62,891 nt of DNA from Candidatus Omnitrophota bacterium (GCA_049517335.1 JBEKSD010000007.1:1-62891); one strand, 5' to 3'. Shown: positions 8,666 through 29,294, counted from the first letter of the stretch. Program-made: numbers and translations. The notes: a model not told the origin generated them from the letters alone.

Positions 8666-9929
8666 GGATACCCTCCTTGAGATATTTGGTTTTTAGCTCT
8701 TCCGAAACTTTATCTACCCCCGCAAAAGCGATATAGCGTTTGACAATCGCATCGCAATACTTGGGTTCGATTTCCATTCCATGACAACATCTGCCTAAAC
8801 TTTCTGCTGCTATCAAGGTTGAACCACTGCCGAGGAATCCGTCAAACACAACGTCGCCTCTTGTTGAGCTGTTCCGGATAGCCCTAGCGGGAATTTCAAC
8901 GCTCTTTTGGGTGGGGTGAATCAGATCTGCGGCTTTATCGCGGTCTATCTCCCATAAATTGCTTTCATTTGTGGGGCCATACCATTTATGCGGAGCATTC
9001 TTAAGCCAGGAGTAAAGACAAAACTCAGTCTGCTGGTTAAAATCCCCGTATGAAATGGCAAAAGTCGGTTTAGCCCAAGTAATTACCGTTGACACGTGGA
9101 ATCCAAGTTCTTTTAGGACCTGGTGGACAAAATAAAACTTAGCATGCCCGTTCCATATGTACGCTGATGCGCCATCTTTTAGAAAGCGTCTTATATTTTT
9201 TAAAACGCTTCCAATCCATTGCTCATATTCCTTCTCATTAAGATCATCCTTGTACAATTTTTCCCAGCGTTTGGATTTTTTAGGCCTAGATTCAAGGTCA
9301 GGTCGATTTTGCGCTAAATAGAAACAGCCGTACGGAGGATCAATATGCACAAGGTCGATTGTTTCGTTCTGCATCAAGATGTCCAGATCGCTTTCGCATG
9401 CCGCATCTGCGCACATAATGCGATGCGCCCCAAGCGCAATCACATCGCCTCGCTTGGTAATCGGCTTATCTATCGAATCAACTACATTCTCAAAGTCAAA
9501 ATCATCCGGGTCTTTTTGCACGCCATACTGATCCAATAGGTGTGATATATCCGAGTTTAAGAAACCGGTAATAGTGACGTCAAAATCAGGCACGCGGGCC
9601 AACTCCTCCAGGAGTACGCTTAATTTCTGCTCGTCCCAATCTCCGGCGATCTTATTCAAGGCAATGTTACAGGCCTTTTCCTTTTCCGGTGAAAAGTCAA
9701 CTATTACAGCCTCAACGCCCAAAATGCCGCGCTCGCGCAGCACCTTAATTCTCTGATGACCCGAAATAATATGCATGCTGCGTTTGTTGACGACGATCGG
9801 CTCGATAAAGCCGAATTCGTCAATGCTGCGGGCGAGTTTTTGGTATTCCGGGTCAGTCGGCTTCAAATCCTTGCGGGGATTGTACGGAGCTTCACAATAG
9901 TCTTTAAGCATGATAATCTGAATATCCAT
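8658..9929 (-). CDS. ParB-N-terminal domain fused to N6A/N4C DNA methyltransferase (phage type)
   Basis: YNPRKDL and IISGHQR (ParB); IDPPYG (motif IV); FDGFLGSGST (motif I). Confidence 0.9.
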   Translation of the reverse strand: MDIQIIMLKDYCEAPYNPRKDLKPTDPEYQKLARSIDEFGFIEPIVVNKRSMHIISGHQRIKVLRERGILGVEAVIVDFSPEKEKACNIALNKIAGDWDEQKLSVLLEELARVPDFDVTITGFLNSDISHLLDQYGVQKDPDDFDFENVVDSIDKPITKRGDVIALGAHRIMCADAACESDLDILMQNETIDLVHIDPPYGCFYLAQNRPDLESRPKKSKRWEKLYKDDLNEKEYEQWIGSVLKNIRRFLKDGASAYIWNGHAKFYFVHQVLKELGFHVSTVITWAKPTFAISYGDFNQQTEFCLYSWLKNAPHKWYGPTNESNLWEIDRDKAADLIHPTQKSVEIPARAIRNSSTRGDVVFDGFLGSGSTLIAAESLGRCCHGMEIEPKYCDAIVKRYIAFAGVDKVSEELKTKYLKEGIHA

Positions 9930-10105
9930 AATTTTCTCCCTTCGCGTTTATTTTCAATAAGTTAAGAAAATAAACATACTTTTTGGTTTAACCGCTTGCA
10001 TAGTAGCTAACTGTCTTGAGATGTCTTACAACAGATGTCCATATAGCCAGCCCTCCCAGTTAAAAGTTGGATATCCCTACCAATAATCCTCTGTACATCT
10101 AGCGT

Positions 10106-10314: not shown

Positions 10315-11265
10315 ATGACTAAAAATAGCCTTTCTTTCTTTAAAGGTAGGAGGGGGAAGGATTTTAAGAAAAGGTGGCCTCCCAGGCTTAAGCTTTTATT
10401 GGTCTCCCAAGCCTTGGAGGTTACCAAAAAGGAATTGTCAAAATACCCCCGCATCAAACATTATCTTTTTGTCATTACGCCTTACGGATACGCTAAATCC
10501 CCCGAAAAAAAATTAGAGATGATTAAAGGACAGAAGGAAATTGTTGAGAAACGCTATGCAGACTTGATAAATAAACTTTCCAGAAAAGTTGCGGATAGGT
10601 ATATTGGGTGGGATTTCCTAAAATTAGGCTTCAAAGGAAACTGGAGCATGCATCATCGGAAAGATTCTATAAAGCATATAGCAAAGGAATTGGTTAGTGA
10701 AGAAATTAAGATTTTGCGCGGAGAAAAAAGGCAAGACAGGGACATCTATAACGATATAAAAAATAAAAAAAAGCCAAAATATAAGATTGATATAGATTCA
10801 GAGGAACGAAACCAAGCTACCGTAAGGACACCAGATGTAGCTACAGACATTGAAGCCCTTGATAATAGGCTAATATATCAGGAATTAACCGCTGGGTTAT
10901 CGGAAAAAGAAAAAGACACCTTAAACACAGGGGAAACTGGAAAAGATTTTTATGCACTAGTCGCAAAAATAAAAGAAAAGCAAAGCAGACAAATAGAACA
11001 ACTTAGTAAAGAAAGAGGAATCTCTAAAACAGCTAAAACAGAAACCGCCAAGCCCCCTCTATCAAAAGGCATATCTCCCGAAGAGTGTTGCAGTATTATT
11101 AACAACCTCGGTACAGACTGGTTTAAGGGTATGCTCCGGGAGGGATTTGAAAAAATACTGCAACTTAAACCTCCATTATTAAAAAAATCCAAAATTTCTA
11201 CGGCATACCTTTACCTTATCCTGGTTTTAGGTTTACCTATCTTAATAAGGTGGCCAAAAATTTAG
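10315..11265 (+). CDS. Hypothetical basic protein, possibly sigma-factor-like
   Basis: 316-aa ORF with RBS and upstream TTGACA-17-CAGAAT (10256-10284). DIEALDNRLIYQELTAGLSEKEK recalls the entry into sigma region 4. Confidence 0.55.
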   Translation: MTKNSLSFFKGRRGKDFKKRWPPRLKLLLVSQALEVTKKELSKYPRIKHYLFVITPYGYAKSPEKKLEMIKGQKEIVEKRYADLINKLSRKVADRYIGWDFLKLGFKGNWSMHHRKDSIKHIAKELVSEEIKILRGEKRQDRDIYNDIKNKKKPKYKIDIDSEERNQATVRTPDVATDIEALDNRLIYQELTAGLSEKEKDTLNTGETGKDFYALVAKIKEKQSRQIEQLSKERGISKTAKTETAKPPLSKGISPEECCSIINNLGTDWFKGMLREGFEKILQLKPPLLKKSKISTAYLYLILVLGLPILIRWPKI

Positions 11266-11732
11266 ATATTAAGCCTGAAAAGCTAAAAGTTTTCTTTGAC
11301 AAAATAAAATTTCCCTATATCTATCCCCTTCCAAATATAAGGCAAGATAAAAAGAAACTTTACCTTATAGACGAAGACAAATTGGATGTCTATCTTCCCT
11401 ATCCAACCATTCAGGCTTATTTTTACATGGAAAAAAATTACAAAACCTGGAGAAAGGAATTAGGCTGCGGTTTTACAAGGGCGAGGGCATCCCATTTTAT
11501 GGAAAGAAAGATAAAAAGAATGAGGGTTCCATATTACTATTTTGATTTGGTTGAACCCAAGGATGAATGTGTTTCTTATGTTCTTGATAAGAAAAGCCAT
11601 CCTCTAACGGACTTACCAAAAGGAACGGAAATGTTGGAAAATTATTATAGAAATTACAGATGGCCTCCTTTAACCCATAAGCAACTAGTAAAAGCACTAA
11701 AAATCAGATTCTCGTTACAATTAAAGCTATAA
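11250..11732 (+). CDS. Hypothetical protein
   Basis: 160-aa ORF, GTG start, overlapping the upstream ORF by 16 nt. Confidence 0.55.
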   Translation: MAKNLDIKPEKLKVFFDKIKFPYIYPLPNIRQDKKKLYLIDEDKLDVYLPYPTIQAYFYMEKNYKTWRKELGCGFTRARASHFMERKIKRMRVPYYYFDLVEPKDECVSYVLDKKSHPLTDLPKGTEMLENYYRNYRWPPLTHKQLVKALKIRFSLQLKL

Positions 11733-11783: not shown

Positions 11784-14198
11784 TTAGGATGCAAAAACCG
11801 CTGTTGACGTTCCTCCCTCAGACTCTTCGGCAATTAGGACATGCTGCATAGAGTCCTTCAAGTCTTCATGGTGTGTAATCAAAAAAATCTGCCGAAATTG
11901 TCCCGATAGATTATTGAGAGCTTTTAGAATGTTTTCCTTGCGACCTGCATCCTGACTTCCAAATATTTCATCCAGTGCGATAAAATTAATCCCTGTCCTA
12001 CTATTCTGTTCACTGATAATTTGTGAAATAGCAATACGTAGGCACAAATTCACTAGATCCTGTTCCCCACCTGAGAATCTCTTCACCGGGAAGCTTTCAG
12101 TGCCATCATAGACAAAAACATTGTATTCCTCATCAAGGTCAATGGCTGGATATCGACCATCTGTGGTGCCAGCTACAAGTTGACTCGTCCGAGCAATAAG
12201 CATGGGCCTTATTCTGCTTGCTAAATTTTGCCGGAACTTATCCATAAGTTCATCCAAAACGGTTAGCTTTTTCGCATCACTATCAGCCGCTTTCCATTTT
12301 TTCTGAATTTCCTTCTGGCTCTTAAGAGCTTCTTCTTTTTGGATAATCTGAGCCTGCATCAACTCGATTTGATGTATTATATCATTAATAGCAATCTCCT
12401 GCCTGTGAGCTTTGTCTTGTATGCTATCATAATTCTTCTCGGCGGCAGCTAATTCTATATCACTGAATCCGATGCTTTTTTGCTCTTTTTCTTTTAACGT
12501 TTTTTCCTTATTAAGTTCTGCTGCTTGTTCATCGAGTGTTTTGATTTCTTTTATAAGAATCGAGATTCTTGCTGTTTTTGTCCGTAATTCCATAATTTGC
12601 TCGTGAATCTTCAATAGTTCCTTATTTTTCTTTTTTAATTCTTCGTACCGAGTTTCTGAAAATTGCAAGTTACCGATTTCGGTAATTCGCGCCTTTTTCT
12701 TCTTGACACTTTCGGTAAGCGCTAAAAGGCGTTTTTCTTTCACATCAAGTTCGCTCTTGATACCCGATTCCTTTTTTTCATCTTCACGAAGCTCTTCCAG
12801 CCGGGCTTCAATATCTTCTACGCGGTTCTCCGTACCATCTACCTTTATCTTCAGTTCCTTACTTTCGGCACTCATATCCTTGATGCTCTGCTGCTTTTTT
12901 GTAATTTCCTTACTAAAATGCTCTAATATGCTTTCGTAATTAGCTCCCAGGTCCTGTGAACATTCAGAGCACTTGCTATTAGGACCAAGCTTTTTAATAT
13001 TCTCCTTTTTTTCTTCTAATTGAGCAATAGAATCACGACAGGCCTCGATTTTTACGGATAATGTATTGAGATCTTTGGATATACGTTTGAAGATAGAACT
13101 TTCATTTTTCAATTCAAGCTGTAATTTTTCCTTCTTCGCCACCAATCCTCTATAACTGGATAAACTATCAATTAATAGCTTTCTTTCTTGAACAACCTCA
13201 GCTTGGTCATCCAACCGCTCGTTGAGATCTTTCTCTAGATTTTTCTTTTCCTCATACAGGCTCCTCATCGCTTCAAGTTTTTCCAATGTTTCCTTGGCAG
13301 AAAAATATTCGGCATCCTTAGGCCCTATTTTGACTAGCTCCTTTTTTTTAGTTTGGAGCTCATCGAGCTCTTCCGTGTATTTTTTTATTTGTTCTGACTT
13401 TCCTTGAATCTCTTTCTCAAAGCGTATAATACTAGTATGGATCTGCTGAAAGCCTTTCCTTTTGGATTCCAATTCCTGTTTTTTAGCCTTGGCGGACTTA
13501 AGCTCGATCTTAATACTTTCAAACTTTTTCTCGTTCGTTACCTGTTGCTCAACCGTCGCACTCTTTTTCTTTGAAAGTTCGTCTATTTCTCCGATAATCG
13601 CAGTTTCATCCATTATCATCTCTTTAAGGCTCTCGGCCATCTGTTGTTTAATACGACGGTTCTGCCTTATTTCCTTAAGCGCTAAATCAATCAGATCGAT
13701 CCTCAGTAAGCGCCGTATTATCTGCTGTCGTTCGGCCGGATTTTGGGAAGTCAACAGATCTAATTCTTTTTGCCGTGCAAACACGGACGCGAAAAATGTT
13801 GCACGATCCATTCCGAAAAGTTTTGAAATATAAGCGTTAACACCATCTTCCCGTTCTGCGACTGCCTGCTCTTTACCATTTTTATAAACAAATGCCTGGG
13901 CTATAGCCCGCTTACCCTGCAGTCGCCTAACAACTTTATAAGTGTCTCCTGCCATTTCAAATTCAAGCGTCACTTCGCAGTTTGCATCAATGTCAGCTCC
14001 CTGTGTCCTTACTCCTTCTTTATCGGTTCTTCCCGTTAACGCATATGTTCCATAAAGCGCCCATCCCACGGCTTCAAGAATGGTCGACTTACCCGATCCA
14101 TTCTCTCCGATAATACCGATAAGCCCTGCAGGAAGATCTGTAAGGTCAAGCTGTTTGAATCTGCGAAAATTAGTTAGAGTAAGGCGCCGAATTATCAC
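11784..14198 (-). CDS. sbcC: SbcC/Rad50-like SMC ATPase
   Basis: GENGSGKST, long coiled coil with central CSEC zinc hook, FSGGE, IALDE, ITHH. GTG start overlaps the sbcD stop. Confidence 0.9.
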   Translation of the reverse strand: MIIRRLTLTNFRRFKQLDLTDLPAGLIGIIGENGSGKSTILEAVGWALYGTYALTGRTDKEGVRTQGADIDANCEVTLEFEMAGDTYKVVRRLQGKRAIAQAFVYKNGKEQAVAEREDGVNAYISKLFGMDRATFFASVFARQKELDLLTSQNPAERQQIIRRLLRIDLIDLALKEIRQNRRIKQQMAESLKEMIMDETAIIGEIDELSKKKSATVEQQVTNEKKFESIKIELKSAKAKKQELESKRKGFQQIHTSIIRFEKEIQGKSEQIKKYTEELDELQTKKKELVKIGPKDAEYFSAKETLEKLEAMRSLYEEKKNLEKDLNERLDDQAEVVQERKLLIDSLSSYRGLVAKKEKLQLELKNESSIFKRISKDLNTLSVKIEACRDSIAQLEEKKENIKKLGPNSKCSECSQDLGANYESILEHFSKEITKKQQSIKDMSAESKELKIKVDGTENRVEDIEARLEELREDEKKESGIKSELDVKEKRLLALTESVKKKKARITEIGNLQFSETRYEELKKKNKELLKIHEQIMELRTKTARISILIKEIKTLDEQAAELNKEKTLKEKEQKSIGFSDIELAAAEKNYDSIQDKAHRQEIAINDIIHQIELMQAQIIQKEEALKSQKEIQKKWKAADSDAKKLTVLDELMDKFRQNLASRIRPMLIARTSQLVAGTTDGRYPAIDLDEEYNVFVYDGTESFPVKRFSGGEQDLVNLCLRIAISQIISEQNSRTGINFIALDEIFGSQDAGRKENILKALNNLSGQFRQIFLITHHEDLKDSMQHVLIAEESEGGTSTAVFAS

Positions 14199-15334
14199 GA
14201 TTGTTCCTTTTCTTGGGCCTGGTTAATATAGCGCGTTCCAAGATTGACAAGCTCCTTTTTATCATTATCTGACATTTTAATATCTGCTAAAAATCGTTCG
14301 AATTCAAGCGGAAGAGCATCTATGGCTTTATCAACTATGACATCACCGTCTTTTTCCTGCACTAATTCCGGGTGAATATCAACGTGGAAGGCTTCAACAA
14401 ACAGCTCGCGTATACGCTTAAGATCCAACTGGACATAAGTTGACCTCGTCAGATTTTCCAGTTTTAACTGTATTATCCTTCCATCAATCTTGTTTTTAGT
14501 CTTTAATTCGCTTATCATATCTAGGACTTCGGAGGCATCTTTACCGGCGCAATTTACCGGCCCCAACCTTAACATCTCCCGAACTTCTATCGGAATAAAT
14601 TCCGCTTTATGCTCAGCTAAATCAGCAAAAACTATGCCTTTAGGATAGCCTATTTCACGAAAACTGAATCTTTCCGTAGAGCCGCTATAGTAAGCATTAG
14701 GAATGTTCTTAATTTCTAGAAAGCGATGCCAATGCCCAAGAGAGACATAATCGAAGTCCTTAAACCTGAGAAATACTTTCCCGGGAATGATCAGTTCGTT
14801 AAATTCCCCCATCTTATAAACGTCATCTAAGGTTATGCCGGCATGAAGGCCTAAAATGTTAAATTTGGCCTTTGAATCCAATTTTACTTTTTCAAGTTCC
14901 GCGCAAAGCTCTGCATCAGAGGAAGTATGGGGTACAATATGGATGGCGGCATCCCCGATTCTTATTTTCTCATATTGTTTTTTGTAAACCGGATATATGT
15001 TCGGAAGTATTGTCAGCGCTTCAAAAATTGACCCAGAGGAAGCAACTCGAGGAGTTGAGTGATTTCCAGAAATAAGGATGGTGGGAATCCCGGCAGTTGA
15101 TAGTCGTTGTAACTCGGATAGGGCAATATGAATAGCCCGGTTGCTTGGGCGAGGACTATCGAAAAGATCCCCAGCATGTATTACAAGATCAGGCTTTTTC
15201 TTCAGAATAAAATCTATGGCTTGTTTAAAAGCCGCGTTTACGTCTAGCTCTCGCTGATTAATTCCTGATACTGCGTCAATCTTTGAATATTCGCCATAGC
15301 CGAGATGCGTATCAGAAAAGTGAATTAGCTTCAT
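14195..15334 (-). CDS. sbcD: SbcD/Mre11 metallophosphoesterase nuclease
   Basis: HFSDTHLG, HAGDLFD, SGNHS, LGHWH. ATG at 15334. Confidence 0.9.
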   Translation of the reverse strand: MKLIHFSDTHLGYGEYSKIDAVSGINQRELDVNAAFKQAIDFILKKKPDLVIHAGDLFDSPRPSNRAIHIALSELQRLSTAGIPTILISGNHSTPRVASSGSIFEALTILPNIYPVYKKQYEKIRIGDAAIHIVPHTSSDAELCAELEKVKLDSKAKFNILGLHAGITLDDVYKMGEFNELIIPGKVFLRFKDFDYVSLGHWHRFLEIKNIPNAYYSGSTERFSFREIGYPKGIVFADLAEHKAEFIPIEVREMLRLGPVNCAGKDASEVLDMISELKTKNKIDGRIIQLKLENLTRSTYVQLDLKRIRELFVEAFHVDIHPELVQEKDGDVIVDKAIDALPLEFERFLADIKMSDNDKKELVNLGTRYINQAQEKEQS

Positions 15335-15413
15335 AAACAAATAATTCTATTTGTGGATAAACAATAATGCGCGCTCCGAGTCTAAAAATAACTCCAATTT
15401 TTAACGGGATAAT

Positions 15414-16271
15414 TTAATTGCCATTTTTTGCTATACATTTTCCGAAAGAATTAATATTATTCTTCGCTATTCTGCAAACTTTTTTATTAATATCTATCCC
15501 TATATATTGACGACCTATCTGTATAGAAGCTATTGCAGTTGTTCCAGAACCCATAAAAGGATCAAGCACTATATCCCCTTTTTTTGTAAATAGCTTGATA
15601 AACCACTTTGGCAAATTGATAGGGAATGTAGCACTATGATTCCTATATGCACATTCAGTTGCTAAATGTAATACATTAGTCGGATATACTTTTCTTCTCC
15701 CAACCCAATTTGATACTTTTCTTCCAAAGCCACTTTTGGATTTTGAACTTATTCTTTTGCCATCGTCTTCACTCATGTTTTTAAGCCTAGTCTCTGCCCA
15801 CTTTCCTATCGGAACCTTCACTGCATCTTGGTACATTTTAAATTTCTTTCTTTTGTTAAACTGCAAACATCTTTCCCATGCATCCCTCAAACGATTAGGC
15901 CATTTTCCGGGGAAACTATTCTTTTTATGCCATATAAATTCTTCTGTCCATAACCATCCCTGTTTTTTCATTCCAGATATTAAATCAATAACATACGTAT
16001 GACGCTCTCCATTGACTACTTTCTCTTTGATATTCAAGACTAAAGTGCCTGTGGACTTTAAAACCCTAAAACACTCAGCCATTCTCGGCAATAACCATTC
16101 TGCATATTGGTCTGGATGGATTCCTCCGTAATCATCTTTACGGCTATCTGCATAAGGAGGTGATGTGACTATTAAATCGATACAATTATCTGGTAAGTCA
16201 CTTAAAACATCAAGACAATCACCATAAGCTATTTTATTTACACTTTCTCTTAATCGACCTTTAATCTTCAT
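15414..16271 (-). CDS. Beta-class N4C/N6A DNA methyltransferase
   Basis: IVTSPPY (motif IV) N-terminal; HSATFP; DPFMGSGTT (motif I) C-terminal. Confidence 0.9.
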   Translation of the reverse strand: MKIKGRLRESVNKIAYGDCLDVLSDLPDNCIDLIVTSPPYADSRKDDYGGIHPDQYAEWLLPRMAECFRVLKSTGTLVLNIKEKVVNGERHTYVIDLISGMKKQGWLWTEEFIWHKKNSFPGKWPNRLRDAWERCLQFNKRKKFKMYQDAVKVPIGKWAETRLKNMSEDDGKRISSKSKSGFGRKVSNWVGRRKVYPTNVLHLATECAYRNHSATFPINLPKWFIKLFTKKGDIVLDPFMGSGTTAIASIQIGRQYIGIDINKKVCRIAKNNINSFGKCIAKNGN

Positions 16272-16278
16272 ATTTGAG

Positions 16279-16287
16279 AGTATAGCA
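16279..16287 (-). promoter_or_regulatory. Extended -10 promoter giving a probably leaderless methyltransferase mRNA
   Basis: TGcTATACT, then 7 nt, then ATG; no SD sequence. Confidence 0.6.
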
Positions 16288-16312
16288 AATTATAGTTCCT
16301 TGGTCCAGCAAT

Positions 16313-17299
16313 TTAATTAGTAATCCAGTGAGGAGACTTCAAATAAAAACACAATACTTCTTGCGTACTTTCCCATACCTTTTTGTTCTTATAAATATTA
16401 ACAAATGGATCCCTGATTATTTTTAGGTTTTCAATATTAAATTCTTTCCTGCCGCTATGTGGTAATAAATATAAATAATACTGCTCGCGAAGAAACTTTG
16501 CTTTTTCTATTTCATTGCGCGTCCAGTTGAATTTATGCTCAAGTGCTGCAACCGCCTTAACTTCAATATATCTTTCTAAGGACGAGCTTTCATCAAAGCT
16601 AATTATATCGTAACCAGCAGATACATCTTTTGGGGATATATATTTGATTTTCTTAACTAAAGCTGGAAATTTAGCCAATCTCTTTCTTTCATATTTAAGT
16701 ACTTCTAATTCGGCAACCCTACCTATTTCTTCATCGGCCTTTTTGTTTTTCAAAAACTCTTCTAGTGTAATTTTTCTTTTATTTTTTATCAGTGTAGGTT
16801 TTTGATATTCATTTAAAAGAATGTAGTTTTTCTGGTCTAGAGATAATTTAATAATTCCTAGCTCCATAAGGAAATTTCTCGGGCCGCTAGATTTATATCT
16901 CTGAGATGGTGCCGGCTTGAATGAATACTCTCCATCCTTTAATTTAAAATTTGCCAAGAAATCGTAGAGGGATTTACAAACTAATAATTTCTTATTTAAT
17001 ATGATGTTAATTAAGAATTCTTTTATCTTCTGCTCTGGATTATTGATATCTTTTATCTTTAACAATAAAATTTTAAAACTCGGTAATAACTGGATATTAC
17101 CTTGATTATTAAAAATTAACCCAAGGTCTCTTAAGAAATCTACGGTTTCTTTAAAATACACGGACTTAGTTAAGAATCGTTTTCGCAGGAACTCTTCGTT
17201 CAAAAGAGACGAAGCATTGATGATTTCGCAAATAATGAATATCTGCTTCAAGGAAATCTTTTCAAAAGATATTTTATCTTTTATTAAATAATCTTTCAT
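16313..17299 (-). CDS. DUF3883 (NOV_C) PD-(D/E)xK nuclease with N-terminal domain
   Basis: IGRVAELEVLKYE...AGYDIISF...YIEVKA...TRNE...YYLYLL. Start uncertain (17299, 17308 or 17362). Confidence 0.85.
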   Translation of the reverse strand: MKDYLIKDKISFEKISLKQIFIICEIINASSLLNEEFLRKRFLTKSVYFKETVDFLRDLGLIFNNQGNIQLLPSFKILLLKIKDINNPEQKIKEFLINIILNKKLLVCKSLYDFLANFKLKDGEYSFKPAPSQRYKSSGPRNFLMELGIIKLSLDQKNYILLNEYQKPTLIKNKRKITLEEFLKNKKADEEIGRVAELEVLKYERKRLAKFPALVKKIKYISPKDVSAGYDIISFDESSSLERYIEVKAVAALEHKFNWTRNEIEKAKFLREQYYLYLLPHSGRKEFNIENLKIIRDPFVNIYKNKKVWESTQEVLCFYLKSPHWITN

Positions 17300-19187
17300 A
17301 GGCAGCATTTTCTTCATCCCCTTCAAACATATCCAATGAATAAATACCATAATCTTGTTCAATAATTTCGTGCATTCTTACGGCTTTTCTGTCTAAATTA
17401 TCCTTTATATCTTGATCAATAGTATTTTCATACTGTAGGAAATAGTAGTTTGCAACGTTTACTTCGGAACCGCCAACTCTGTGTATTCTATCCAGCGATT
17501 GTAAATATTGCGCACAATTATAAGACAAATCATAGTAAATGGCATGAAGACACGTTTGATGCAAAGATATCGATTCAGCACAAGCAGCAGGATTAAGAAT
17601 TAAAACATCCAGCCCACTTTTAATATCTTTAAATTTATTGATTATCTTTTCTCTTGTCATTGCTTCCCGTATAGAAGTTTGTTCTGTTGGAGTGTCTCCA
17701 TATATCAACTCACAATTAAACCCTTTTTGAGTTAAATACTTTTTTATAAATTTCAACGTATTAACAAAGTTAGCCCAAATAATAACTTTTTTATCTTTTA
17801 AAAATATTTTTTTTATCAAGCGGCCTAAGAAAATTAACTTCTCGGGTTTCTCAAGCCTATCATAATTATAAATGACATTACGTAAGTCTTTATCCTCCTT
17901 CACTAGGTCTTCTGTATACCCATCTATACAGTTTATCAATAATTTTACATAAGAAGCACATTGCCTAAGTCTCATAATTCGGCCCCTTCTTAACTTTAAT
18001 ACTAAATCTATATTCTTTAAATAATCCTCCTTAGAATAGTTTATGATTTTTCTTTCAATTGCATCATATATCATCCTTTCGTTCTGATTCATTTTAATTA
18101 CAAAAGGATTGTGAAACTTCGGGCGTTTTAGGCCAAGATCGGATTTTCTTACTCTATAAAACAAAACTCCAATTTCTTCCTTAAGGATATCCTTTACTGA
18201 AGAATCATTATGTGTGTCTTCAAGCAATTTTATTCTGGTTTTAATTGTAGGAGTTAATGGATTGAGTTTATCATATAGAAAATCAAACATATTAAAAATA
18301 TCTGTATAACTTCTGGGCATAGGCGTTCCCGTTAAAATACATTTATATTTCGCATATCGAGATAAGGTTAAAATAGCACTTGCCCAGCTTCCTCCTAGCT
18401 GTTTAATATAATGAGCCTCATCTATAACGAAAAAAATATTAGTACCCTTAGTATTGAAGAACTCTCTTACTTCAATGCGGTCGTTAGAAAGTGTTTGGAA
18501 AGTTGTCAAATACAATTCACTCCTTTCCGAATGATCACTAAAGTAATCATTTTTTCTAATTAGATGGTGGCCTCCAGCAAAAATTTTGAATTTTGGTGTT
18601 CTTCCTAGAGTAGATTCAAATTCTTTCTTCCATGGACCAAAGCACGATGTAGGTCCAACCACAAATAAAGTATTAACCTTCCCCTCCAATTTAAGTTTTT
18701 CATATACTGTTAAAATCACCGATGTTTTACCACTGCCTGGAACTGAAAAATTTGCCCCGCTTTCTAATAAATAAAGATGGAAAGCTGCTTTAAGTTGGTG
18801 GGGTTTTAATTTTCTAGGAATGCTTTTCTTGGCAAACTCATAGAACTTATCTAACGCTTCCTTATCAAATTTTCCATCTTTAAATTCTTGGGCAAGTTTC
18901 CTTTTTGTATTAAATTCTGCAATTTCATTAACTAACCTAGAGTAATATTTTCTACAGATAGAAGATAATTGATAATCAATACTTTCCTCTTTGAAATAAC
19001 CGGTTATTTTGAGTAGTATTGAGTCGACCTCCTTAACTTCTTGCTGGAATGAACCATCTTGAGGATTATTTTTGAAACCAAAGAAAGTCAGTTGACTAAT
19101 GTGCTCGGGTTTTAAATTTAACTTAACGCCAGACAAGATTAAAGTATTGTTTAATATATCTATACTGAGTGGCTTGCTACTATTCAT
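17274..19187 (-). CDS. SNF2/SWI2-family SF2 helicase
   Basis: NFSVPGSGKT, IDEAHYIK, LTGTP, AESISL, QSLDRIHRVG. ATGA overlap with the upstream gene. Confidence 0.9.
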   Translation of the reverse strand: MNSSKPLSIDILNNTLILSGVKLNLKPEHISQLTFFGFKNNPQDGSFQQEVKEVDSILLKITGYFKEESIDYQLSSICRKYYSRLVNEIAEFNTKRKLAQEFKDGKFDKEALDKFYEFAKKSIPRKLKPHQLKAAFHLYLLESGANFSVPGSGKTSVILTVYEKLKLEGKVNTLFVVGPTSCFGPWKKEFESTLGRTPKFKIFAGGHHLIRKNDYFSDHSERSELYLTTFQTLSNDRIEVREFFNTKGTNIFFVIDEAHYIKQLGGSWASAILTLSRYAKYKCILTGTPMPRSYTDIFNMFDFLYDKLNPLTPTIKTRIKLLEDTHNDSSVKDILKEEIGVLFYRVRKSDLGLKRPKFHNPFVIKMNQNERMIYDAIERKIINYSKEDYLKNIDLVLKLRRGRIMRLRQCASYVKLLINCIDGYTEDLVKEDKDLRNVIYNYDRLEKPEKLIFLGRLIKKIFLKDKKVIIWANFVNTLKFIKKYLTQKGFNCELIYGDTPTEQTSIREAMTREKIINKFKDIKSGLDVLILNPAACAESISLHQTCLHAIYYDLSYNCAQYLQSLDRIHRVGGSEVNVANYYFLQYENTIDQDIKDNLDRKAVRMHEIIEQDYGIYSLDMFEGDEENAAYERLFNKR

Positions 19188-20599
19188 TTTTTCTTTTTCT
19201 TTGTAAAATCAGAGGCTTCTTTTTCTATATGGTAAAACTCAGACTCAATCTCTTGAGCACGTTTTTTAATCTCTCTAGCTAAATCCATTGCTCTTGAAAA
19301 CTGAGATAACGGAACTGCCTCGGGATCCATTGCATCATGATTGAGTTTTTTTAATGCTGATTCCAATAATTCTAAGGGGGTTTCTCTCTCTTCCTTGTTT
19401 TCTTGAAGAAAAGCGGCTTTTTTAACTTGGTTAACAATTTGTGATTTGTATTTTGTACACCATAACTTATCAATCATACTTACGTCATATTCGTTCCCAT
19501 CTTTGTCACGACACTCTTCCTTTGGTAAATGAACCTTGACTTCAATCAGTTTAAGGATTTCTTTCTTTGCATCTTCATTGCTTAACCAACTAGGAAGTCT
19601 TCTCATTACCTGATGCACTTTTGACAAACTAGGTATTCCATCAATCTGCCTTAGTCGAATTATTTTAAAGGCCACTGATTCAATTTTGCCTACCTCGTTT
19701 TCTGTAACCCCTAGAATTAACCTTTGTTTCGGGTCTTCTAGTTTTTTAAAAACTGAGTTGTAATAATCGTAGAACGCTTGCCATCTTCCTTCGGGATCAC
19801 CCAATCCCGATGAAACAGTACCATAGAGTTCTTGCCTATCCAACATATCGAGATACCTATCGATACATTCTAATGGCTTAAGATAATCATCTCTATATTT
19901 TCTCACTGCCTTTTCAAAAGTTTTTTTATCAAGTCCTGAAAAAACAGGATCGTCTCTCAATTGCTCATCTATCGACATTCCTAAGGCCATTTTCCTTTTT
20001 ATTGATAATGCGCGATCAAAAGCATAATATTCAGCCTTACCATCACTCTGAAGCTGATACCTATTTTCAATTTGCTCTATTTCTAACAAGGTTGGAGGTC
20101 CACCCTCATCCTTCTTTCCAGGTAAAATTACAACTTTCATGTTTAAAAATCGAGTGTCGTGGCTATCTTCCCAAAGCTTTTCTAAAACCATTTTTCTACG
20201 ATTTCCATTGATAAGAAATCCGTCACAAGTAATAATCGCAGGTTCTCGTTGCTCTTCATGCTTGATAGATTGTGTCAATTCTTCGGTTTTTTCTTTATCT
20301 TTTTCTTCAAGAAATTTTCTAAGCATTTTCTGCGCCTCTTCAGATTTCTCATCTAATACTCCACAATTCCTTTCATAATTCAATACATCAGAGCTAATGC
20401 GACCATTGTCTTTTCTGTAGCGAAGAATCTCAAAGGGAACCAAATAAACATCTCGTTCAATGCCATGCTTCCGTTCATTCCTAAAATCTATAACCGTCCT
20501 TGCAGGCTTTGGGCCCTTTGTTTTTCTTTTTTCTATTTCATCTGTAAAATCATCAATAATTTCTCTAACTACAGGCTTTGTTAACTTTCCCATTTTCAT
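19184..20599 (-). CDS. ParB/Srx-like N-terminal domain protein
   Basis: YRKDNGRI and ITCDGFLINGNRRKMVL resemble the ParB GxxR motif; GAGGAGG RBS. Confidence 0.65.
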   Translation of the reverse strand: MKMGKLTKPVVREIIDDFTDEIEKRKTKGPKPARTVIDFRNERKHGIERDVYLVPFEILRYRKDNGRISSDVLNYERNCGVLDEKSEEAQKMLRKFLEEKDKEKTEELTQSIKHEEQREPAIITCDGFLINGNRRKMVLEKLWEDSHDTRFLNMKVVILPGKKDEGGPPTLLEIEQIENRYQLQSDGKAEYYAFDRALSIKRKMALGMSIDEQLRDDPVFSGLDKKTFEKAVRKYRDDYLKPLECIDRYLDMLDRQELYGTVSSGLGDPEGRWQAFYDYYNSVFKKLEDPKQRLILGVTENEVGKIESVAFKIIRLRQIDGIPSLSKVHQVMRRLPSWLSNEDAKKEILKLIEVKVHLPKEECRDKDGNEYDVSMIDKLWCTKYKSQIVNQVKKAAFLQENKEERETPLELLESALKKLNHDAMDPEAVPLSQFSRAMDLAREIKKRAQEIESEFYHIEKEASDFTKKKKK

Positions 20600-20619
20600 C
20601 CTCCTCTTTGCGCAGTAAT

Positions 20620-20661
20620 AAAAAAGGGCAATCTATGAACTTAAATAGAATTGTCCTTTTT
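20620..20661 (-). terminator. Intrinsic-terminator-like hairpin immediately upstream of the ParB-like gene
   Basis: Minus strand GGACAATTCTAT-loop-ATAGATTGCCC followed by TTTTTT. Confidence 0.55.
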
Positions 20662-20768
20662 AGGATATCTTCACCGCCATATCTTTATGAAAATTAATTT
20701 TTACATTAGCGCATTCTTTTTCGTATGGATTATGAGAGTTATTATTTTTGGGCTCATAATTACTTACG

Positions 20769-20797
20769 ATTATACAACTTTTGGCTCTATTTAACAA
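20769..20797 (-). promoter_or_regulatory. Sigma70 promoter for the defence-like cluster
   Basis: TTGTTA (20797-20792), 17 bp, TATAAT (20774-20769). Confidence 0.65.
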
Positions 20798-20870
20798 CTG
20801 AAAGTTCCCTCTCTATTTCCCTTGATATCTCTCTAATTGTATGGCCATATGTGTCCTGAGGAGGCCAAAA

Positions 20871-21311
20871 ATGAATGGAATAATGGTGCTTAAAAACGCA
20901 CCCATTGAAGAGCTTCTCGGGCGATACAAAGAGCTTTATGGTGATAACGCTGCCGGAACTCATAGACTCTATCTCTGGCGAAAAATAGCTTATAGGCTAC
21001 AAGAGCGCGAGCAAGGTACTCTATCGACCAAAGCTAAGGTTCGGCTTAAGACGCTTATTGAAGAGTATGATCCTATCAATAATAAAGCCCTTAGGCCTGA
21101 TAAGCCATCTTGTCTACCGGTTATCGCTAAAGATAAACGGCTGCCCATTCCAGGAACCGTAATCACTAAGGAATACAAGGACACGAAGTACCAGGTAAAG
21201 GTGCTGGAGAAAGGTTTTGAGTATACCGGCAAAATATATAAAACGCTATCCGCCATTGCTAAAGAGATAACCGGAGCGCATTGGAATGGGTATCTGTTTT
21301 TTAATCTGTAG
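20871..21311 (+). CDS. DUF2924 domain protein
   Basis: GAGGAGG RBS before ATG 20871. LWRKIAYRLQE, PGTVITKEY, YKTLSAIAKEITGAHWNGYLFF. Confidence 0.9.
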   Translation: MNGIMVLKNAPIEELLGRYKELYGDNAAGTHRLYLWRKIAYRLQEREQGTLSTKAKVRLKTLIEEYDPINNKALRPDKPSCLPVIAKDKRLPIPGTVITKEYKDTKYQVKVLEKGFEYTGKIYKTLSAIAKEITGAHWNGYLFFNL

Positions 21312-21319
21312 GAGGTCTG

Positions 21320-22909
21320 ATGGAAACACAAGAAAAGAAGACGATTAACTGCGCCATTTATACGCGCGTTTCAACTACTGAAGGGCTAGAGCAGGAATTT
21401 ACCTCACTCGATAACCAACGCGAATCCGCGGAAAGCTACATCCAAAGCCAAAAATCTGAAGGCTGGGTAGCATTGCCTGAACGCTACGATGACCCAGGCT
21501 ATACGGGAGCAAATACGGAGCGACCTGCCTTGCAAAAACTTATGGCTGATATCAAAGAAGGTAAAATTAACTGTGTAGTAGTATATAAAGTAGATCGGCT
21601 ATCGCGATCGCTCCTTGATTTCAGTAAGCTTTTGGAGTCCTTTGAGCAAAATAACGTAACCTTCGTTTCAATAACGCAGCATTTCAACACTAATGCCTCT
21701 ATGGGGCGCTTGACCTTAAACATCCTTCTCTCCTTCGCCCAGTTTGAGCGGGAGATCATTAGTGAACGCACACGCGATAAAATGGCCGCTTCCAAAAAAA
21801 GAGGCAAGTGGGTCGGCGGCAAGCCTCCTTTAGGCTACGATATAGATAAAGTAAACAAAAAGCTGGTTATAAACCCAAAGGAAGCCGAACTGGTAAAGGA
21901 GATATTCGATCTCTACCTTGAGAAAAAGTCTTTGCTTTCAGTGGCTATAGCGCTTAATGAAAGGAGCTATGTAACAAAAAGTCGCAAAACTCTTAAAGGC
22001 AGGGAATATGGTGGTGTAAAGTTTAAAAACACAAGCATTCAGTCAATAGTTAAGAATCCATTCTATATCGGCAAGGTCGGTCATGCAGGAGTACTTTATC
22101 AAGGTGAGCAAGAACGTATAATATCCGACGATGTATTCCAAAAGGCTCAAGAAATACTGGCCAATAATCGCCTGGAACGCAAGGTCGCCGGCGTAGTCAC
22201 AAGCATTGGCTTACTGAATAGCATCCTGCGCTGCAAAGCCTGCGACAGCACCATGTACTACATATACAGCAGAAAAGGTACTAATAAGTACCACTACTAC
22301 CTTTGTATGAATGCTCAGAAACGAGGCTACAAGAGCTGCCCTACGCGTCTTATATCGGCACAATTAATCGAGGATAAGTTTATGGAGTTTTTAAGAACCA
22401 TATCTAAAGACCCAAGGATTGAAGCTAAGGCCTGGGAAGCATTAACTCTGGAAGAAAAGATACCTATACTTAGATCTATCGCCAAGGTTGCGTATTACGA
22501 TGCAATTAACGGAACCCTTGAAATATTGCTCTGTAATGCCAATAAGAGCCATCAGTTCGCGTTAAAACTGTCTGAGTTAAAGCATACACCCTTCTATCGC
22601 CAACAGGCCAAAATAAGCCAAGAACCACCTATACGCCAGAACTTAATCCTAGCTCATCAAATAAACCAAGTGGCATACGAAAGAAAGTGTGGCCTAAAAG
22701 AAATAGCTAGCTGGATCGGCATAACTCACGCGAGAATCTGCCACATCACAAACATGCTCCTTATATCACCACGAATCCAGGAAGAGATACTCCTCTCTGA
22801 TAATAAGGCACTCTCCAACATCCCTGAATACAAGCTGCGCGACATAACCAAAGAATTAGACTGGAATAAGCAACAAGAAATCTGGAATAACCTCCTCAAA
22901 TCCCAATAA
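21320..22909 (+). CDS. Large serine recombinase (resolvase + recombinase + zinc-ribbon domains)
   Basis: IYTRVST catalytic Ser, YKVDRLSRS, FAQFEREIISER, CKAC...C...C zinc ribbon. Confidence 0.92.
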   Translation: METQEKKTINCAIYTRVSTTEGLEQEFTSLDNQRESAESYIQSQKSEGWVALPERYDDPGYTGANTERPALQKLMADIKEGKINCVVVYKVDRLSRSLLDFSKLLESFEQNNVTFVSITQHFNTNASMGRLTLNILLSFAQFEREIISERTRDKMAASKKRGKWVGGKPPLGYDIDKVNKKLVINPKEAELVKEIFDLYLEKKSLLSVAIALNERSYVTKSRKTLKGREYGGVKFKNTSIQSIVKNPFYIGKVGHAGVLYQGEQERIISDDVFQKAQEILANNRLERKVAGVVTSIGLLNSILRCKACDSTMYYIYSRKGTNKYHYYLCMNAQKRGYKSCPTRLISAQLIEDKFMEFLRTISKDPRIEAKAWEALTLEEKIPILRSIAKVAYYDAINGTLEILLCNANKSHQFALKLSELKHTPFYRQQAKISQEPPIRQNLILAHQINQVAYERKCGLKEIASWIGITHARICHITNMLLISPRIQEEILLSDNKALSNIPEYKLRDITKELDWNKQQEIWNNLLKSQ

Positions 22910-23259
22910 AACTAACCCACCATTAAGCCTTTACTAGAGATAAATTCAGCCAAATATCCGCCAAACCCTAGTAAATGGTTATTTTGCTTGATGAAAACTA
23001 GCAAATTATCGTAAAAATACCATTTACTACACGCGTCCTAAAATAAGCCGAATCAGAGATAAAACTCGCTATTTTGGAGATTAGTTGGCTTGTTCTGCAA
23101 AAATTTTACATGCTAGAAGAGATGGGTGTTCAAAATTAGCGTCATCGTCGGAAAACAATGCCCTAACTCTTTGAAACGTAAAGAGAAAGAAAAAGCTCTA
23201 ATCAGCTAAACTAATCAGAGCTTTATGCCTCTCTCCTTTTGGAACGAGAGAGAACTTAT

Positions 23260-23337
23260 TGGTGTCCCCAACCGGATTCGAACCGGTGTCGAGAGCTTGA
23301 AAAGCTCTTGTCCTAGGCCAGGCTAGACGATGGGGAC
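23260..23337 (-). tRNA. tRNA-Glu(TTC)
   Basis: GTCCCCA acceptor stem, AGAGC-TT-TTC-AA-GCTCT anticodon arm, GGTTCGAATCC, CCA encoded. Confidence 0.97.
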
Positions 23338-23342
23338 AAATA

Positions 23343-25775
23343 TTATTCCGTTTCCTCTGCAATAACCGGGGCAACGCAGGCCACATGATCCTTATCCTGC
23401 AACTTTATCAGACGCACACCCTGTGCAGAACGGCCAGTTTCACGTATATCTTTTACAGCGCAGCGTAAAAATGCGCCGTTTTGCGTTATGACCATCAACT
23501 CATCGGTATCGGTTACGGACTTTATATTGACCACCTGGCCGTTCTTATCCGTAACCTTAATGTTAATTACCCCTTTGCCGCCGCGGCTGGTTAGGCGGTA
23601 CTCATCAACCGTAGTGCGTTTGGCAAAACCAAGCTCAGTAACGGTTAAAATAGCCGCATCTTTTTTAAGCACGATCATATCCACAACTTCGTCTTTCTTG
23701 CCTAACGATATACCCCGCACCCCCGACGCCTGCCTGCCCATGTCGCGCACTTTGGTTTCAGTAAACCTTATGGCCTTACCCTGACGGGTCCCGATAAAAA
23801 GCTCCTCTTTGCCGTCGGTCATTTCAACCCCGATTAATTCATCATCTTTATCAAGGGTGATCCCGATAATCCCGCCCTTACGCGGGTTGCCGTAAGCATC
23901 AAGCTTGGTTTTCTTGATTTTGCCCTCTTTCGTCGCCATAACCAAATATTTATCAGGAGAGAATTCCTTCACCGGTATAGTAGAACTAATCTTTGAAGAA
24001 GGATCGACCTGGATTAAATTTACGATGGCTTTACCTTTTGACTGACGCGAGGCTTGCGGTATCTCGTAAACTTTCAACCAGTGCACCTGCCCTTTATCGG
24101 TAAAGATCAGCAGGTAGTCTTTGGTTGAAGCTACGAACAGATGCTCAATGAAATCTTCTTCTTTTAATTCCGCTCCAGTCACGCCTTTACCGCCGCGTTT
24201 TTGTTTACGATACGAGCTGACTGGAAGACGCTTAATGTATCCGCCATGGCTGATGGTTACAACCACATCCTCCTCGGCAATTAAATCTTCAACTTCCAAT
24301 TCTTCAGCTTCGCCTACCAAGTCGGTCCTGCGCTCATCGCCGTATTTCTTCTTTAGGTTTTCCAGCTCTTCTTTAATAATGGCCTCTACTTTTTTCTCGG
24401 AGGCTAAAATTGCCCGGCAGATTTCAATTTTCTTTAAAAGCTCAACGTATTCAGCATCAATTTTGTCGCGTTCAAGCGCGGTCAGGCGCTGCAGTTGCAT
24501 TTCAAGGATCGCCTGCGATTGGATCTCCGAAAGTTCAAACTCTTTCATTAAACGCTCTTTGGCGTGTTCCGTATTCTTGGAAGTCTTGATCACCTTGATT
24601 ATCTGGTCAATAAATTTAAGCGCAATCTTCAAGCCTTCCAGAATATGCGCCCTTTTTAAAGCTTTGTCTAATTCAAACTGTGTCCTGCGTTTGATAATAA
24701 TCTTGCGGTGTGCGATGTAAGCCTCGAGGATCTGGCGTAAAGTCAAAACTTTGGGCCTGTTTTCAACCAGCGCCAATAAAATAATACCAAAGGTGGTTTC
24801 CAACTGGGTATGCTTAAAAAGCTGATTTAGGATAATTTGCGCTTCGGTATCGCGTTTAAGTTCCACGACAATGCGCATACCGTCCTTATCAGACTCATCA
24901 CGGATATCGGATATCCCTTCGATCTTCTTATCGTCCACCAGCGCTGCGATAGCCTCAATTAAGCCCGACTTCTGCACCTGATAGGGAATCTCGGTAACCA
25001 CTATTAAATCTTTCCCGTTTTTCTGGTGTTCAACTGTCGCCCTTGCGCGCACCGTGAGCTTGCCGCGACCGGTATTATAAGCGTCTTTAATCCCGCTCTT
25101 TCCACAGATGACTCCGCCCGTCGGGAAATCCGGCCCCTTGATAAAACGCATCAGGTCTTTAATCTCAGCTTCGGGGTGGTCTAATAAATAAATTATCGCA
25201 TCCGCTACTTCATTTAAATTATGCGGCGGGATATTGGTAGCCATGCCTACGGCAATGCCGCTTGAGCCGTTGACTAAAAGGTTTGGGAGTGTAGCCGGTA
25301 ACAAAAGCGGCTCTTTTAAAGAAGCGTCAAAATTCGGCCCGAAGTTTACGGTATCCTTGTCTATATCGAAAAGCATTTCATCGGAAACCGCGGCCAGCCG
25401 GGCCTCGGTATAACGCATGGCTGCTGCCGCATCCCCGTCAACAGAACCGAAGTTTCCCTGCCCGTCCACAAGAGGATAACGTAGGGAAAAATCCTGGGCC
25501 ATTCTTACCAAGGTGTCGTAAACCGCAATATCCCCATGCGGGTGGTACTTACCCAGGACCTCGCCAACGATACGGGCGCATTTCTTGTAGGGCTTGGAAT
25601 GGTCAAGGTTGAGCTCCTGCATGGCATAAAGGATCCTGCGGTGCACCGGCTTTAAGCCATCGCGCACATCGGGAAGCGCCCTGCCCACAATTACGCTCAT
25701 CGCGTAATTAAGATAAGCGTCTTGTACTTCGTCCTCGATATAAACCGGGATTATTTTTTCGTTTCTGGTATACAT
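23343..25775 (-). CDS. gyrA: DNA gyrase subunit A
   Basis: YHPHGD, AAMRYTE, GyrA-box QKRGGKG. Confidence 0.98.
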
Positions 25776-26569: not shown

Positions 26570-26570
26570 A

Positions 26571-29290
<2,720 letters not shown>

Positions 29291-29294
29291 ACGT

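Follow-up and report, generated by a model that had tools for sequence, protein, structure and literature searches.

Hma / BREX-related type 1 systems consist of HmaA, in which an SNF2 helicase is fused to a DUF3883 nuclease, together with the DUF1156 methylase HmaB and the DUF499 ATPase HmaC; HmaA by itself protects against T4, for which its helicase and nuclease domains are both required (PMC11232893, PMC12839542). ParB-superfamily proteins serve as defence sensors, namely NsnA of Menshen, SspE, GmrSD/BrxU and DndB (PMC12065111), and ParB, SWI2/SNF2 and DNA methylase domains are hubs of the polyvalent proteins of phages and conjugative elements (PMC5512222). Here we describe a four-gene cassette that contains a ParB-like protein, an SNF2 motor, a DUF3883 nuclease and a DNA methylase, and that lies in an integrative element of a Candidatus Omnitrophota bacterium (GCA_049517335.1 JBEKSD010000007.1:1-62891). 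The whole stretch analysed comprises 62,891 nucleotides and is called the window; coordinates are positions in it unless another locus is named. Among described systems, Hma is nearest to the cassette in domain content and DISARM is nearest in the swapping of methylase chemistry, while Menshen, SspE and GmrSD are the precedent for sensors with a ParB fold. A recent survey of the ParB-CTPase fold records numerous homologues that are orphan and element-linked, without this cassette among them (PMC12704722), and no paper on it was found in the literature and model libraries searched, which were incomplete; the papers nearest in theme, on Hma, BREX-related systems, Dnd, Menshen, ARMADA and polyvalent proteins, do not treat it.

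The cassette spans 15414-20599, and its four genes are named A to D:

Gene A, 19184-20599, minus strand: first gene of the cassette; 471 amino acids; ParB/Srx-like, with a predicted N-terminal ParB-type nucleotide-binding domain, a helix-turn-helix (HTH) and a helical C-terminal half.
Gene B, 17274-19187, minus strand: 637 amino acids; SNF2-family ATPase and predicted double-stranded DNA (dsDNA) translocase, whose start overlaps the stop of A by ATGA.
Gene C, 16313-17299 (longest open reading frame, ORF, to 17362), minus strand: 328 amino acids; tandem winged-helix-like units and a C-terminal DUF3883/NOV_C nuclease of the PD-(D/E)xK type.
Gene D, 15414-16271, minus strand: 285 amino acids; beta-class DNA methyltransferase with an SPPY motif, probably acting on N4 of cytosine.

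Our interpretation is that A-D would form a self-contained, horizontally transferred, methylation-based (restriction-like) defence cassette of an unnamed type, a reading drawn from comparative genomics only, to which we assign a probability of about 0.6. The evidence that carries it consists of four co-evolving genes in a fixed order, intact catalytic motifs and a stand-alone methylase of interchangeable class. The exchange of methylase classes and of effectors, the island and mobile-element contexts and the occasional inactivated copies are hallmarks that suggest a restriction-like function.

A sequence-only reading of the window had joined these genes with the following sbcD and sbcC into one candidate defence system of six co-oriented genes, and much of its description holds. 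All six genes are encoded on the minus strand, there are 4-nucleotide overlaps of A with B and of SbcD with SbcC, B also overlaps C, the catalytic motifs it quoted for B, C and D are intact in the translations, and the AT-richness that it saw corresponds to a guanine-plus-cytosine (GC) fraction of 0.30-0.37 across 15-21 kb, against 0.42-0.48 in host chromosome DNA. The synteny that it proposed to look for, ParB-like/SNF2/DUF3883/methylase, is conserved as a mobile cassette in 80 loci from more than 20 phyla. What survives of its interpretation is thus a conserved, mobile four-gene cassette with restriction-like hallmarks; the inclusion of SbcD-SbcC, which stands beside the cassette in none of those 80 loci, does not.

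Comparison with described systems

Against the 2023 PADLOC models, B gives partial matches of its helicase region only, to ZorD, DpdE, DrmD, BrxH and HmaA, and C gives matches of its nuclease domain to PD-T4-1, PDC-S36 and TmtA. Family-model scans of the cassette and of the neighbouring ORFs, across roughly 0.6-34 kb, found none of the defining components of DISARM, BREX, Hma, Zorya, Dpd, MADS or Menshen. The earlier impression that the composition belongs to no named system therefore agrees with the PADLOC models and family scans, which assemble no complete known system; the cassette matches no system model tested and is treated as an unnamed type.

With Hma the cassette shares an SNF2 motor, a DUF3883/NOV_C PD-(D/E)xK nuclease, a DNA methylase and a fourth, nucleotide-binding protein. 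However, helicase and nuclease are separate ORFs in the cassette and fused in HmaA, the methylase is small and Type II-like (N6_N4 or D12) instead of DUF1156, and the fourth protein is ParB-like, whereas that of Hma is a DUF499 P-loop ATPase. B aligns with the HmaA model over residues 465-576 of its C-terminal lobe only (1.8e-8), C has no HmaA match, and membership was rejected on finding no DUF499 or DUF1156 match in the six genes or the flanking ORFs. DISARM is likewise multi-gene and restriction-like, has an SNF2 helicase (DrmD) and combines a conserved core with either an N6-methyladenine (m6A) or a 5-methylcytosine (m5C) methylase (DrmMI/DrmMII), but possesses no counterpart of the ParB-like component. 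B matches the DrmD models in the C-terminal lobe only (5e-12), with a weak DrmA match to the generic helicase C-lobe (5e-6), and DISARM was rejected as no DrmA/DUF1998 helicase, DrmB or PLD-type DrmC protein was present among the ORFs scanned.

Other helicase-containing systems were rejected on the same kind of evidence. PglZ, BrxC and PglX of BREX are absent from the cassette and its flanks, and B matches BrxHI and BrxHII partially (2e-12 and 1.3e-7). ZorA, ZorB and ZorC of Zorya type I are absent, the match of B to the ZorD models being confined to the helicase core (6.9e-25, profile 472-895 of 1071), and of the 7-deazaguanine system Dpd only a partial DpdE match of B was obtained (5e-17) and no other Dpd protein. 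In the MADS authors' model Mad6, Mad7 and Mad8 are mandatory (10.1101/2023.03.30.534895). MADS was rejected with mad6-8 unmatched, the sole mad match being that of mad3 to the SMC head of SbcC (8.9e-26). Menshen was rejected because A has no match to the NsnA model and NsnB and NsnC are absent.

The ParB-superfamily sensors are like A in placing a helical DNA-binding domain after a ParB/Srx-fold nucleotide-binding domain, and in being accompanied by an ATPase and a polymorphic nuclease effector. They differ from it in branch: the proteins of Menshen, SspE, GmrSD and DndB belong to the DUF262/DGQHR branch, whereas A matches no DUF262, DndB or NsnA model. In addition, the partner ATPase of the cassette is SNF2 and not ABC as in Menshen-type systems, and the cassette adds a methylase. 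Type III and Type ISP restriction-modification (R-M) also set an ATP-dependent superfamily 2 motor and a PD-(D/E)xK nuclease against a self-marking beta-class methylase. In the cassette, unlike in Type III enzymes, the motor is of the SNF2 family and separate from the nuclease, there is an extra ParB-like subunit, and the methylase is a 285-amino-acid stand-alone protein that matches Type II models and not a Mod subunit with its internal target-recognition domain. Type III R-M was rejected as neither REase_III nor MTase_III occurs among the matches listed for B or among the 25 best matches of D listed, and as the nuclease is a gene apart.

The single-gene DUF3883 defence PD-T4-1 matches C in the nuclease domain only (residues 188-304 against profile 229-347 of 383, 3.3e-15); the N-terminal half of C is different, and C sits in a four-gene operon. 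Polyvalent proteins resemble the cassette in combining three of its domain types, which repeatedly co-occur in settings of conflict, as DdrB-like ParB domains and methylase-SWI2/SNF2 dyads, but they are giant fusion proteins that belong to invading elements, include a zincin peptidase and lack a dedicated gene for a nuclease, while the cassette consists of four separate genes, is mostly chromosomal and is absent from viral collections.

Conservation and spread of the cassette

A one-genome-per-species scan gave 136 confirmed matches, of which 80 loci were fetched and compared with the six window proteins by tblastn. B directly follows A in every related locus where the contig continues, C follows B in most of the 80, and a methylase was found in every complete locus. 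All four ORFs are intact in 55 loci, and the five metagenomic or metagenome-assembled genome (MAG) contexts that were examined individually all show the order A-SNF2-NOV_C-methylase. The junction of A and B is tight: it is a 4-nucleotide overlap in about 40% of loci (31/76), and most of the others lie within roughly +/-15 nucleotides.

The GC content of the cassette is below that of its flanks in 44/45 loci, with a mean difference of 8.6 points. Together with the 55-82% identity of A across bacterial phyla, this lower GC leads us to judge the cassette horizontally transferred. Its nearest relative, L009 in an Omnitrophota MAG, is 80.7% identical in nucleotides to window 15381-23030 over 7.7 kb, a segment comprising the recombinase, DUF2924 and A-D in co-linear order, and this element occupies a different chromosomal site. 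Scanning the 2.9 million viral contigs of IMG/VR with the A profile returned 0 relatives, and no close relative of the cassette was found in 50,697 phage and 72,556 plasmid records.

The 146 genes that immediately flank 37 cassettes include strong PADLOC matches to Type III R-M, DarG, AbiEi/AbiEii, NucC, ShosA, NsnA and PDC families, and MmeI-like R-M, HigBA and conjugation genes occur near individually examined cassettes.

In seven loci (L026, L033, L034, L038, L063, L081, L085) the SNF2 gene is interrupted or lies 0.15-2.7 kb away from A, which suggests inactivated copies or insertions. Inactivated copies are frequent among costly defence genes.

The ParB-like protein A

Protein A yields nothing at E<=0.01 against Pfam (including ParB_N, DUF262 and DndB), NCBIfam (including parB), PHROGs or PADLOC, and its profile has no match among PDB sequences; lacking any curated family match, it is a divergent, uncatalogued branch. 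The label 'ParB-like' given to it from the sequence nevertheless gains support from structure comparison, sequence searches and invariant motifs. Its AlphaFold2 (AF2) model, built on 40 homologues, has a mean predicted local distance difference test (pLDDT) of 86.5, and the only PDB structures retrieved by Foldseek with a probability of at least 0.8 are Spo0J (1vz0; E 3e-3, TM-target 0.46) and the N-domain of pNOB8 ParB. In tblastn searches, residues 50-204 match plasmid genes annotated as ParB/RepB/Spo0J, and hhalign aligns A with a PGAP-annotated ParB/RepB/Spo0J protein with a probability of 98.7 (E 1.6e-16). In this region 'GFLINGNRRKMVL' of A stands opposite 'GILVDGNRRFTAL' of the annotated ParB, and the box G132-N-R-R135 aligns with its 'DGNRRFTAL'.

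Two motifs are invariant in the 40 homologues, D126-G-F-L-x-N-G-N-R-R135 (DGFLINGNRR) and E175..N179-R-Y-Q-L-Q184 (IENRYQLQ; E178-N-R180). They resemble the arginine-rich nucleotide-binding box of ParB (GxxRxxA-like) and its ENxxR box, respectively, their equivalence to Spo0J boxes II/III having been judged by eye. A is thus modelled with an N-terminal alpha/beta fold of the ParB type and an HTH behind it, and by fold and sequence it is nearer to canonical partition ParB than to the DUF262/DGQHR branch. More than 1620 homologues were found at 55-82% identity, from Omnitrophota, Planctomycetota, Nitrospirota, Chloroflexota and MAGs labelled as Asgard archaea.

Motor, nuclease and methylase

Protein B contains the Pfam domains SNF2-rel_dom (2.7e-15) and Helicase_C (2.8e-12), with the motifs GSGKT, DEAH and QSLDRIHRVG. 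Its nearest solved relatives in the PDB are ISWI, DDM1 and the Rad54-like enzyme of Sulfolobus (Sso), and helicase motifs I, II, III, V and VI are kept in at least 53 of the 56 family members; B is predicted to be a bona fide SNF2 dsDNA translocase.

Protein C, called as 328 amino acids from start 17299 in the sequence collection entry P0121, carries NOV_C (DUF3883; Pfam 2.4e-14) with the motif GYDI...YIEVK, whose residues D231, E246 and K248 are invariant across the family. In its AF2 model (pLDDT 87.7) two or three helix-helix-helix-hairpin units precede the nuclease. Foldseek matches of C to winged-helix proteins, to the recognition domains of BpuJI/FokI and to Hjc/RecU/SwaI nucleases are all sub-threshold and describe its architecture only, with no homology claimed. 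With a mean identity of about 25%, its N-terminus is the fastest-evolving part of the cassette, while the methylases, at 55-61%, are the most conserved. The N-terminal domain of C does not co-vary with the methylase (partial correlations given A of about 0-0.2), and its candidacy as a specificity subunit tracking the methylase was rejected, the methylase class changing 7 times on the C tree and 8 times on the A tree.

Protein D matches N6_N4_Mtase (Pfam 4.9e-48), shows the motifs SPPY and FMGSG, and has its best PADLOC match in the Type II methylase model MTase_II (2.5e-50). Its best solved relative is M.PvuII, an N4-cytosine methyltransferase (4.8e-23), and D is probably an enzyme of this kind, producing N4-methylcytosine (m4C).

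Exchange of methylases and effectors

The cassette loci carry methylases of two classes, 20 being N6_N4-class, with SPPY in 20/20, and 35 D12-class, with DPPY in 34/35; the latter are DpnM-like, that is, Dam-like m6A enzymes. Neighbour-joining trees of the three proteins A, B and C show 7-8 changes of class, where about 17 would be expected at random, and in some loci the methylase is located upstream or inverted. The methylase is thus interchangeable between two unrelated classes, predicted to be of the m4C type and of the Dam-like m6A type.

The effector position varies as well. C is missing from nine Bacteroidota loci, in which a 257-amino-acid PNP_UDP_1 gene (Pfam 7e-25) abuts A instead. 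The product matches the PADLOC CBASS model 'Effector PN-superfamily' (3e-19) and also PDC-M60C, and its nearest solved relatives are methylthioadenosine/S-adenosylhomocysteine (MTA/SAH) nucleosidases; two of the nine loci have genes for Fic and HNH proteins behind the methylase. Where the sequence-only reading had a ParB-licensed translocase deliver the nuclease, this variant suggests that the A-B core may instead switch on effectors that can be exchanged. This variant and two distant Firmicutes relatives, both of which carry a C5 methylase, have the following positions:

Bacteroidota PNP variant, about 9170-9998 in the respective locus: L062, L073, L074, L076, L078, L079, L082, L084 and L086.
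Streptococcus equi prophage/phage Javan191 (L089), MK448700.1 1-6607: BanI/DpnII-like restriction endonuclease (REase), A-like protein, SNF2, NOV_C and C5 methylase.
Lactiplantibacillus plantarum conjugative plasmid (L096), CP096858.1 45937-52714: dcm, vsr, ParB-annotated A-like protein, SNF2 protein and a 247-amino-acid protein of unknown function.

In Javan191, the A-like protein is recognised with a probability of 98.9 and the NOV_C protein with 99.5, and the SNF2 protein is 33% identical to B. The SNF2 protein of the L. plantarum plasmid is longer, at 862 amino acids, with an extra N-terminal region in which an HxK...GSxN signature is found; such a signature is typical of nucleases of the phospholipase D (PLD) family. 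The N-terminal 330 residues have no match among PDB sequences. Nuclease C has apparently been replaced here by a putative PLD-type domain fused to the helicase, an assignment that rests on the signature as read in the sequence and is not profile-confirmed.

A further three-gene set occurs on more than 50 Enterococcus plasmids (L090, L091), in which an 815-864-amino-acid protein of unknown function, with an HTH like that of sigma-70 region 4, precedes an A-like protein and an SNF2 helicase. This A-like protein matches ddrB-ParB weakly (E 0.0022, below the Pfam cut-off), and in E. lactis the set adjoins a Type I R-M system and an AAA_5 ATPase.

SbcD-SbcC and the variable cargo slot

Two genes follow the cassette on the same strand:

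SbcD, 14195-15340, minus strand: 381 amino acids, Metallophos; adjacent module outside the cassette.
SbcC, 11784-14198, minus strand: 804 amino acids, SMC_N and SbcC_Walker_B; adjacent module outside the cassette.

With a calcineurin-like phosphoesterase next to an SMC-like ATPase in overlapping genes, the pair has the make-up of SbcCD / Mre11-Rad50. SbcD scores 90.4 bits on TIGR00619 sbcd (cut-off 77.65), and SbcC passes the gathering scores of SMC_N and SbcC_Walker_B and remains below the NCBIfam equivalog cut-offs for SbcC/Rad50. In L009, homology to the window stops at 15381, 33 nucleotides beyond the methylase stop codon and between D and SbcD, and the slot that SbcCD holds in the window is there taken (L009 15355-18966) by a HEPN_Swt1-TPR protein of 693 amino acids, a small PDDEXK_1 protein and a protein of unknown function of 235 amino acids. 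From the lack of linkage in the 80 related loci, the end of homology in L009 and the different content of its slot, we conclude that SbcCD is carried as an independent passenger, filling a variable cargo slot of the integrative element that also bears the cassette. The candidate of all six genes as one system was rejected on synteny.

The close SbcD clade, at 61-88% identity and 379 amino acids, extends across Aminicenantes, Acidobacteriota and others, and is always paired with an SbcC of 804-805 amino acids where the contig continues. Elsewhere, its members occupy settings that resemble defence islands: immediately behind BREX PglZ-BrxL, in the vicinity of NERD/UvrD and UDG, and close to SNF2, HNH-HIT, PIF1 and WYL genes. 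The pair may constitute a mobile module that has a role of its own, possibly in defence.

Proposed mechanism and rival explanations

If the cassette acts by restriction, D would mark host DNA at a short motif with m4C; where the methylase is Dam-like the mark would be m6A, and in the distant Firmicutes relatives m5C. A would be a ParB-like nucleotide-gated DNA-binding protein that engages DNA and partners with B, the two genes being closely juxtaposed. On unmarked DNA, the A-B core would recruit or activate an effector, which in most loci would be C cutting the DNA, in Bacteroidota the PNP-family nucleosidase, and in Lactiplantibacillus apparently the PLD-type nuclease fused to the helicase. 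A bolder version is possible, and is put forward tentatively: a ParB-type nucleotide-gated clamp and an SNF2 motor might together be a sensor of non-self DNA, working with m4C, m6A or m5C marks and driving PD-(D/E)xK, PLD or PNP effectors, in a hitherto unrecognised family of epigenetic immune systems that reaches more than 20 bacterial phyla, including the Candidate Phyla Radiation, with copies in Asgard-labelled MAGs.

Several points weigh against a methylation-based defence cassette. Protection, methylation and a complex of A, B and C are all inferred from comparative genomics. That one restriction module should tolerate m4C, m6A and m5C marks is not accounted for, as conservation is high in A, B and the methylases and the C N-terminus diverges without following the methylase. 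The PNP protein could be a metabolic helper of the methylase that clears a methylation by-product, not an effector, and the C5 methylase of Javan191, with the adjoining BanI/DpnII-like REase, may form a conventional Type II pair. The defence-type neighbours, suggestive of a defence role, are a qualitative finding without an exact count or a matched background.

Some of these observations would suit abortive infection, in which the ParB-like/SNF2 core would sense foreign or unmodified DNA, or a phage process, and trigger a toxic effector, either an indiscriminate nuclease or an ATP-/nucleotide-cleaving PNP enzyme, so as to kill or arrest the cell. The exchange of the NOV_C nuclease for a PNP_UDP_1 protein that matches the CBASS purine-nucleosidase effector model is consistent with such a sensor-effector pair, and so are the rapid evolution of the C N-terminus, as at an arms-race interface, and the use of ParB-family sensors by Menshen, SspE and GmrSD (PMC12065111). 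However, a methylase in every complete locus is a signature of self-marking and direct restriction that would be needless for pure abortive infection, and the PNP protein could equally be an SAH nucleosidase; we consider this explanation unlikely. Alternatively, the cassette might serve a mobile element itself, as a split version of the methylase-SNF2-ParB polyvalent combination that methylates the element's own incoming DNA and so protects it from restriction by the host, or attacks rival elements. The role of the three domains as polyvalent hubs (PMC5512222), the location of the window copy and of L009 inside an integrative element beside a serine recombinase, the TrwC and coupling protein genes that adjoin the cassette in L005, and the distant relatives on conjugative plasmids and a prophage all point in this direction. 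Yet many copies, as in L003 and L007, sit among housekeeping genes, the nearest 10 kb being free of mobility genes, none was found in the viral contigs, and host defence genes are among the neighbours; moreover, the genes are separate, lack a zincin peptidase of the polyvalent type and are always accompanied by a nuclease or another effector. An offensive or establishment module of this kind is improbable in our view.

A prophage replication or recombination module, in which SNF2 helicase, nuclease, methylase and SbcCD act jointly on phage DNA and all six genes are one unit, would account for the PHROG matches of B (phrog_62 DNA helicase, 3e-64), D (phrog_67), SbcD (phrog_100) and SbcC (phrog_77), and for the large terminase (TerL) and ParB-methylase genes within the same element. 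It is contradicted by the separation of SbcCD from the cassette in the related loci, with homology to L009 ending between D and SbcD, by the absence of a PHROG match for A and C and of the cassette from viral collections, and by an element in which no replication initiator, portal or capsid genes were found among the scanned ORFs; its probability is very low.

If confirmed, the restriction-like cassette would be a compact four-gene addition to the methylation-based, motor-driven defences (Type I/III R-M, DISARM, BREX, Hma and MADS), and would place at the core of an immune system the ParB nucleotide-switch fold, which is best known from chromosome segregation. Should the sensor version be true, ParB switch chemistry of the canonical type would for the first time be seen to serve immunity. 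An A-B core that occurs alongside methylases of three chemistries, and with two effector types at the least and probably three, is a natural experiment on how self-marking, sensing and killing are wired, and the relatives in cultivable Firmicutes (S. equi prophage Javan191, the L. plantarum plasmid and the Enterococcus plasmids) make it directly testable. As enzymes in their own right, the winged-helix nuclease and the small methylase of the m4C type may likewise deserve attention.

The carrier element

The window covers the replication-origin region, with dnaA, dnaN, gyrB and gyrA and then tRNA-Glu, beside which the integrative element is inserted. From the recombinase end, the element comprises the serine recombinase and DUF2924 genes, the six genes discussed above, two ORFs without family (10315-11732), and a ParB_N-methylase fusion, an HTH protein and a terminase (6286-9929); host genes start again below about 5.6 kb. 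The location in an integrative element, as the sequence-only reading had it, is thereby borne out, with integration genes by tRNA-Glu and a TerL/ParB-methylase module at the other end. Upstream of A lie:

Intergenic region, 20600-20840, minus strand: likely promoter region of the cassette, between A and the divergent DUF2924/recombinase genes.
DUF2924 protein and large serine recombinase (the latter alone 21320-22909), 20841-22909, plus strand: integration module of the element, identified with Pfam; no functional part of the cassette.

A promoter-like match, TTGTTA-17-TATAAT, is located upstream of A at 20797-20769 and serves as a pointer only, as the promoter/terminator scan performed at chance level (32 found against 30.2 expected) and does not define the operon.

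The genes at 6286-9929, encoding TerL, a 229-amino-acid HTH protein and a fusion of ParB_N with an N6_N4 methylase, constitute a phage-type packaging module, and no portal, capsid or tail genes were found between it and the host genes. The lack of portal and capsid genes suggests that the carrier is a prophage remnant or a satellite-like island. No att-type repeats of at least 11 nucleotides were detected at the two element ends, as expected for a serine recombinase.

The two ORFs at 10315-11732 (plus strand; 316 and 160 amino acids) overlap one another, are convergent with SbcC and have zero matches in Pfam, NCBIfam, PHROGs and PADLOC. The non-coding left end of the element contains 41-nucleotide direct repeats at 5680-5720 and 5858-5898, which are 83% identical and 178 nucleotides apart. 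On the other side, at 23260-31968, the tRNA-Glu insertion point is just downstream of the gyrA-gyrB-dnaN-dnaA cluster, and the cumulative GC skew changes direction near 31-33 kb.

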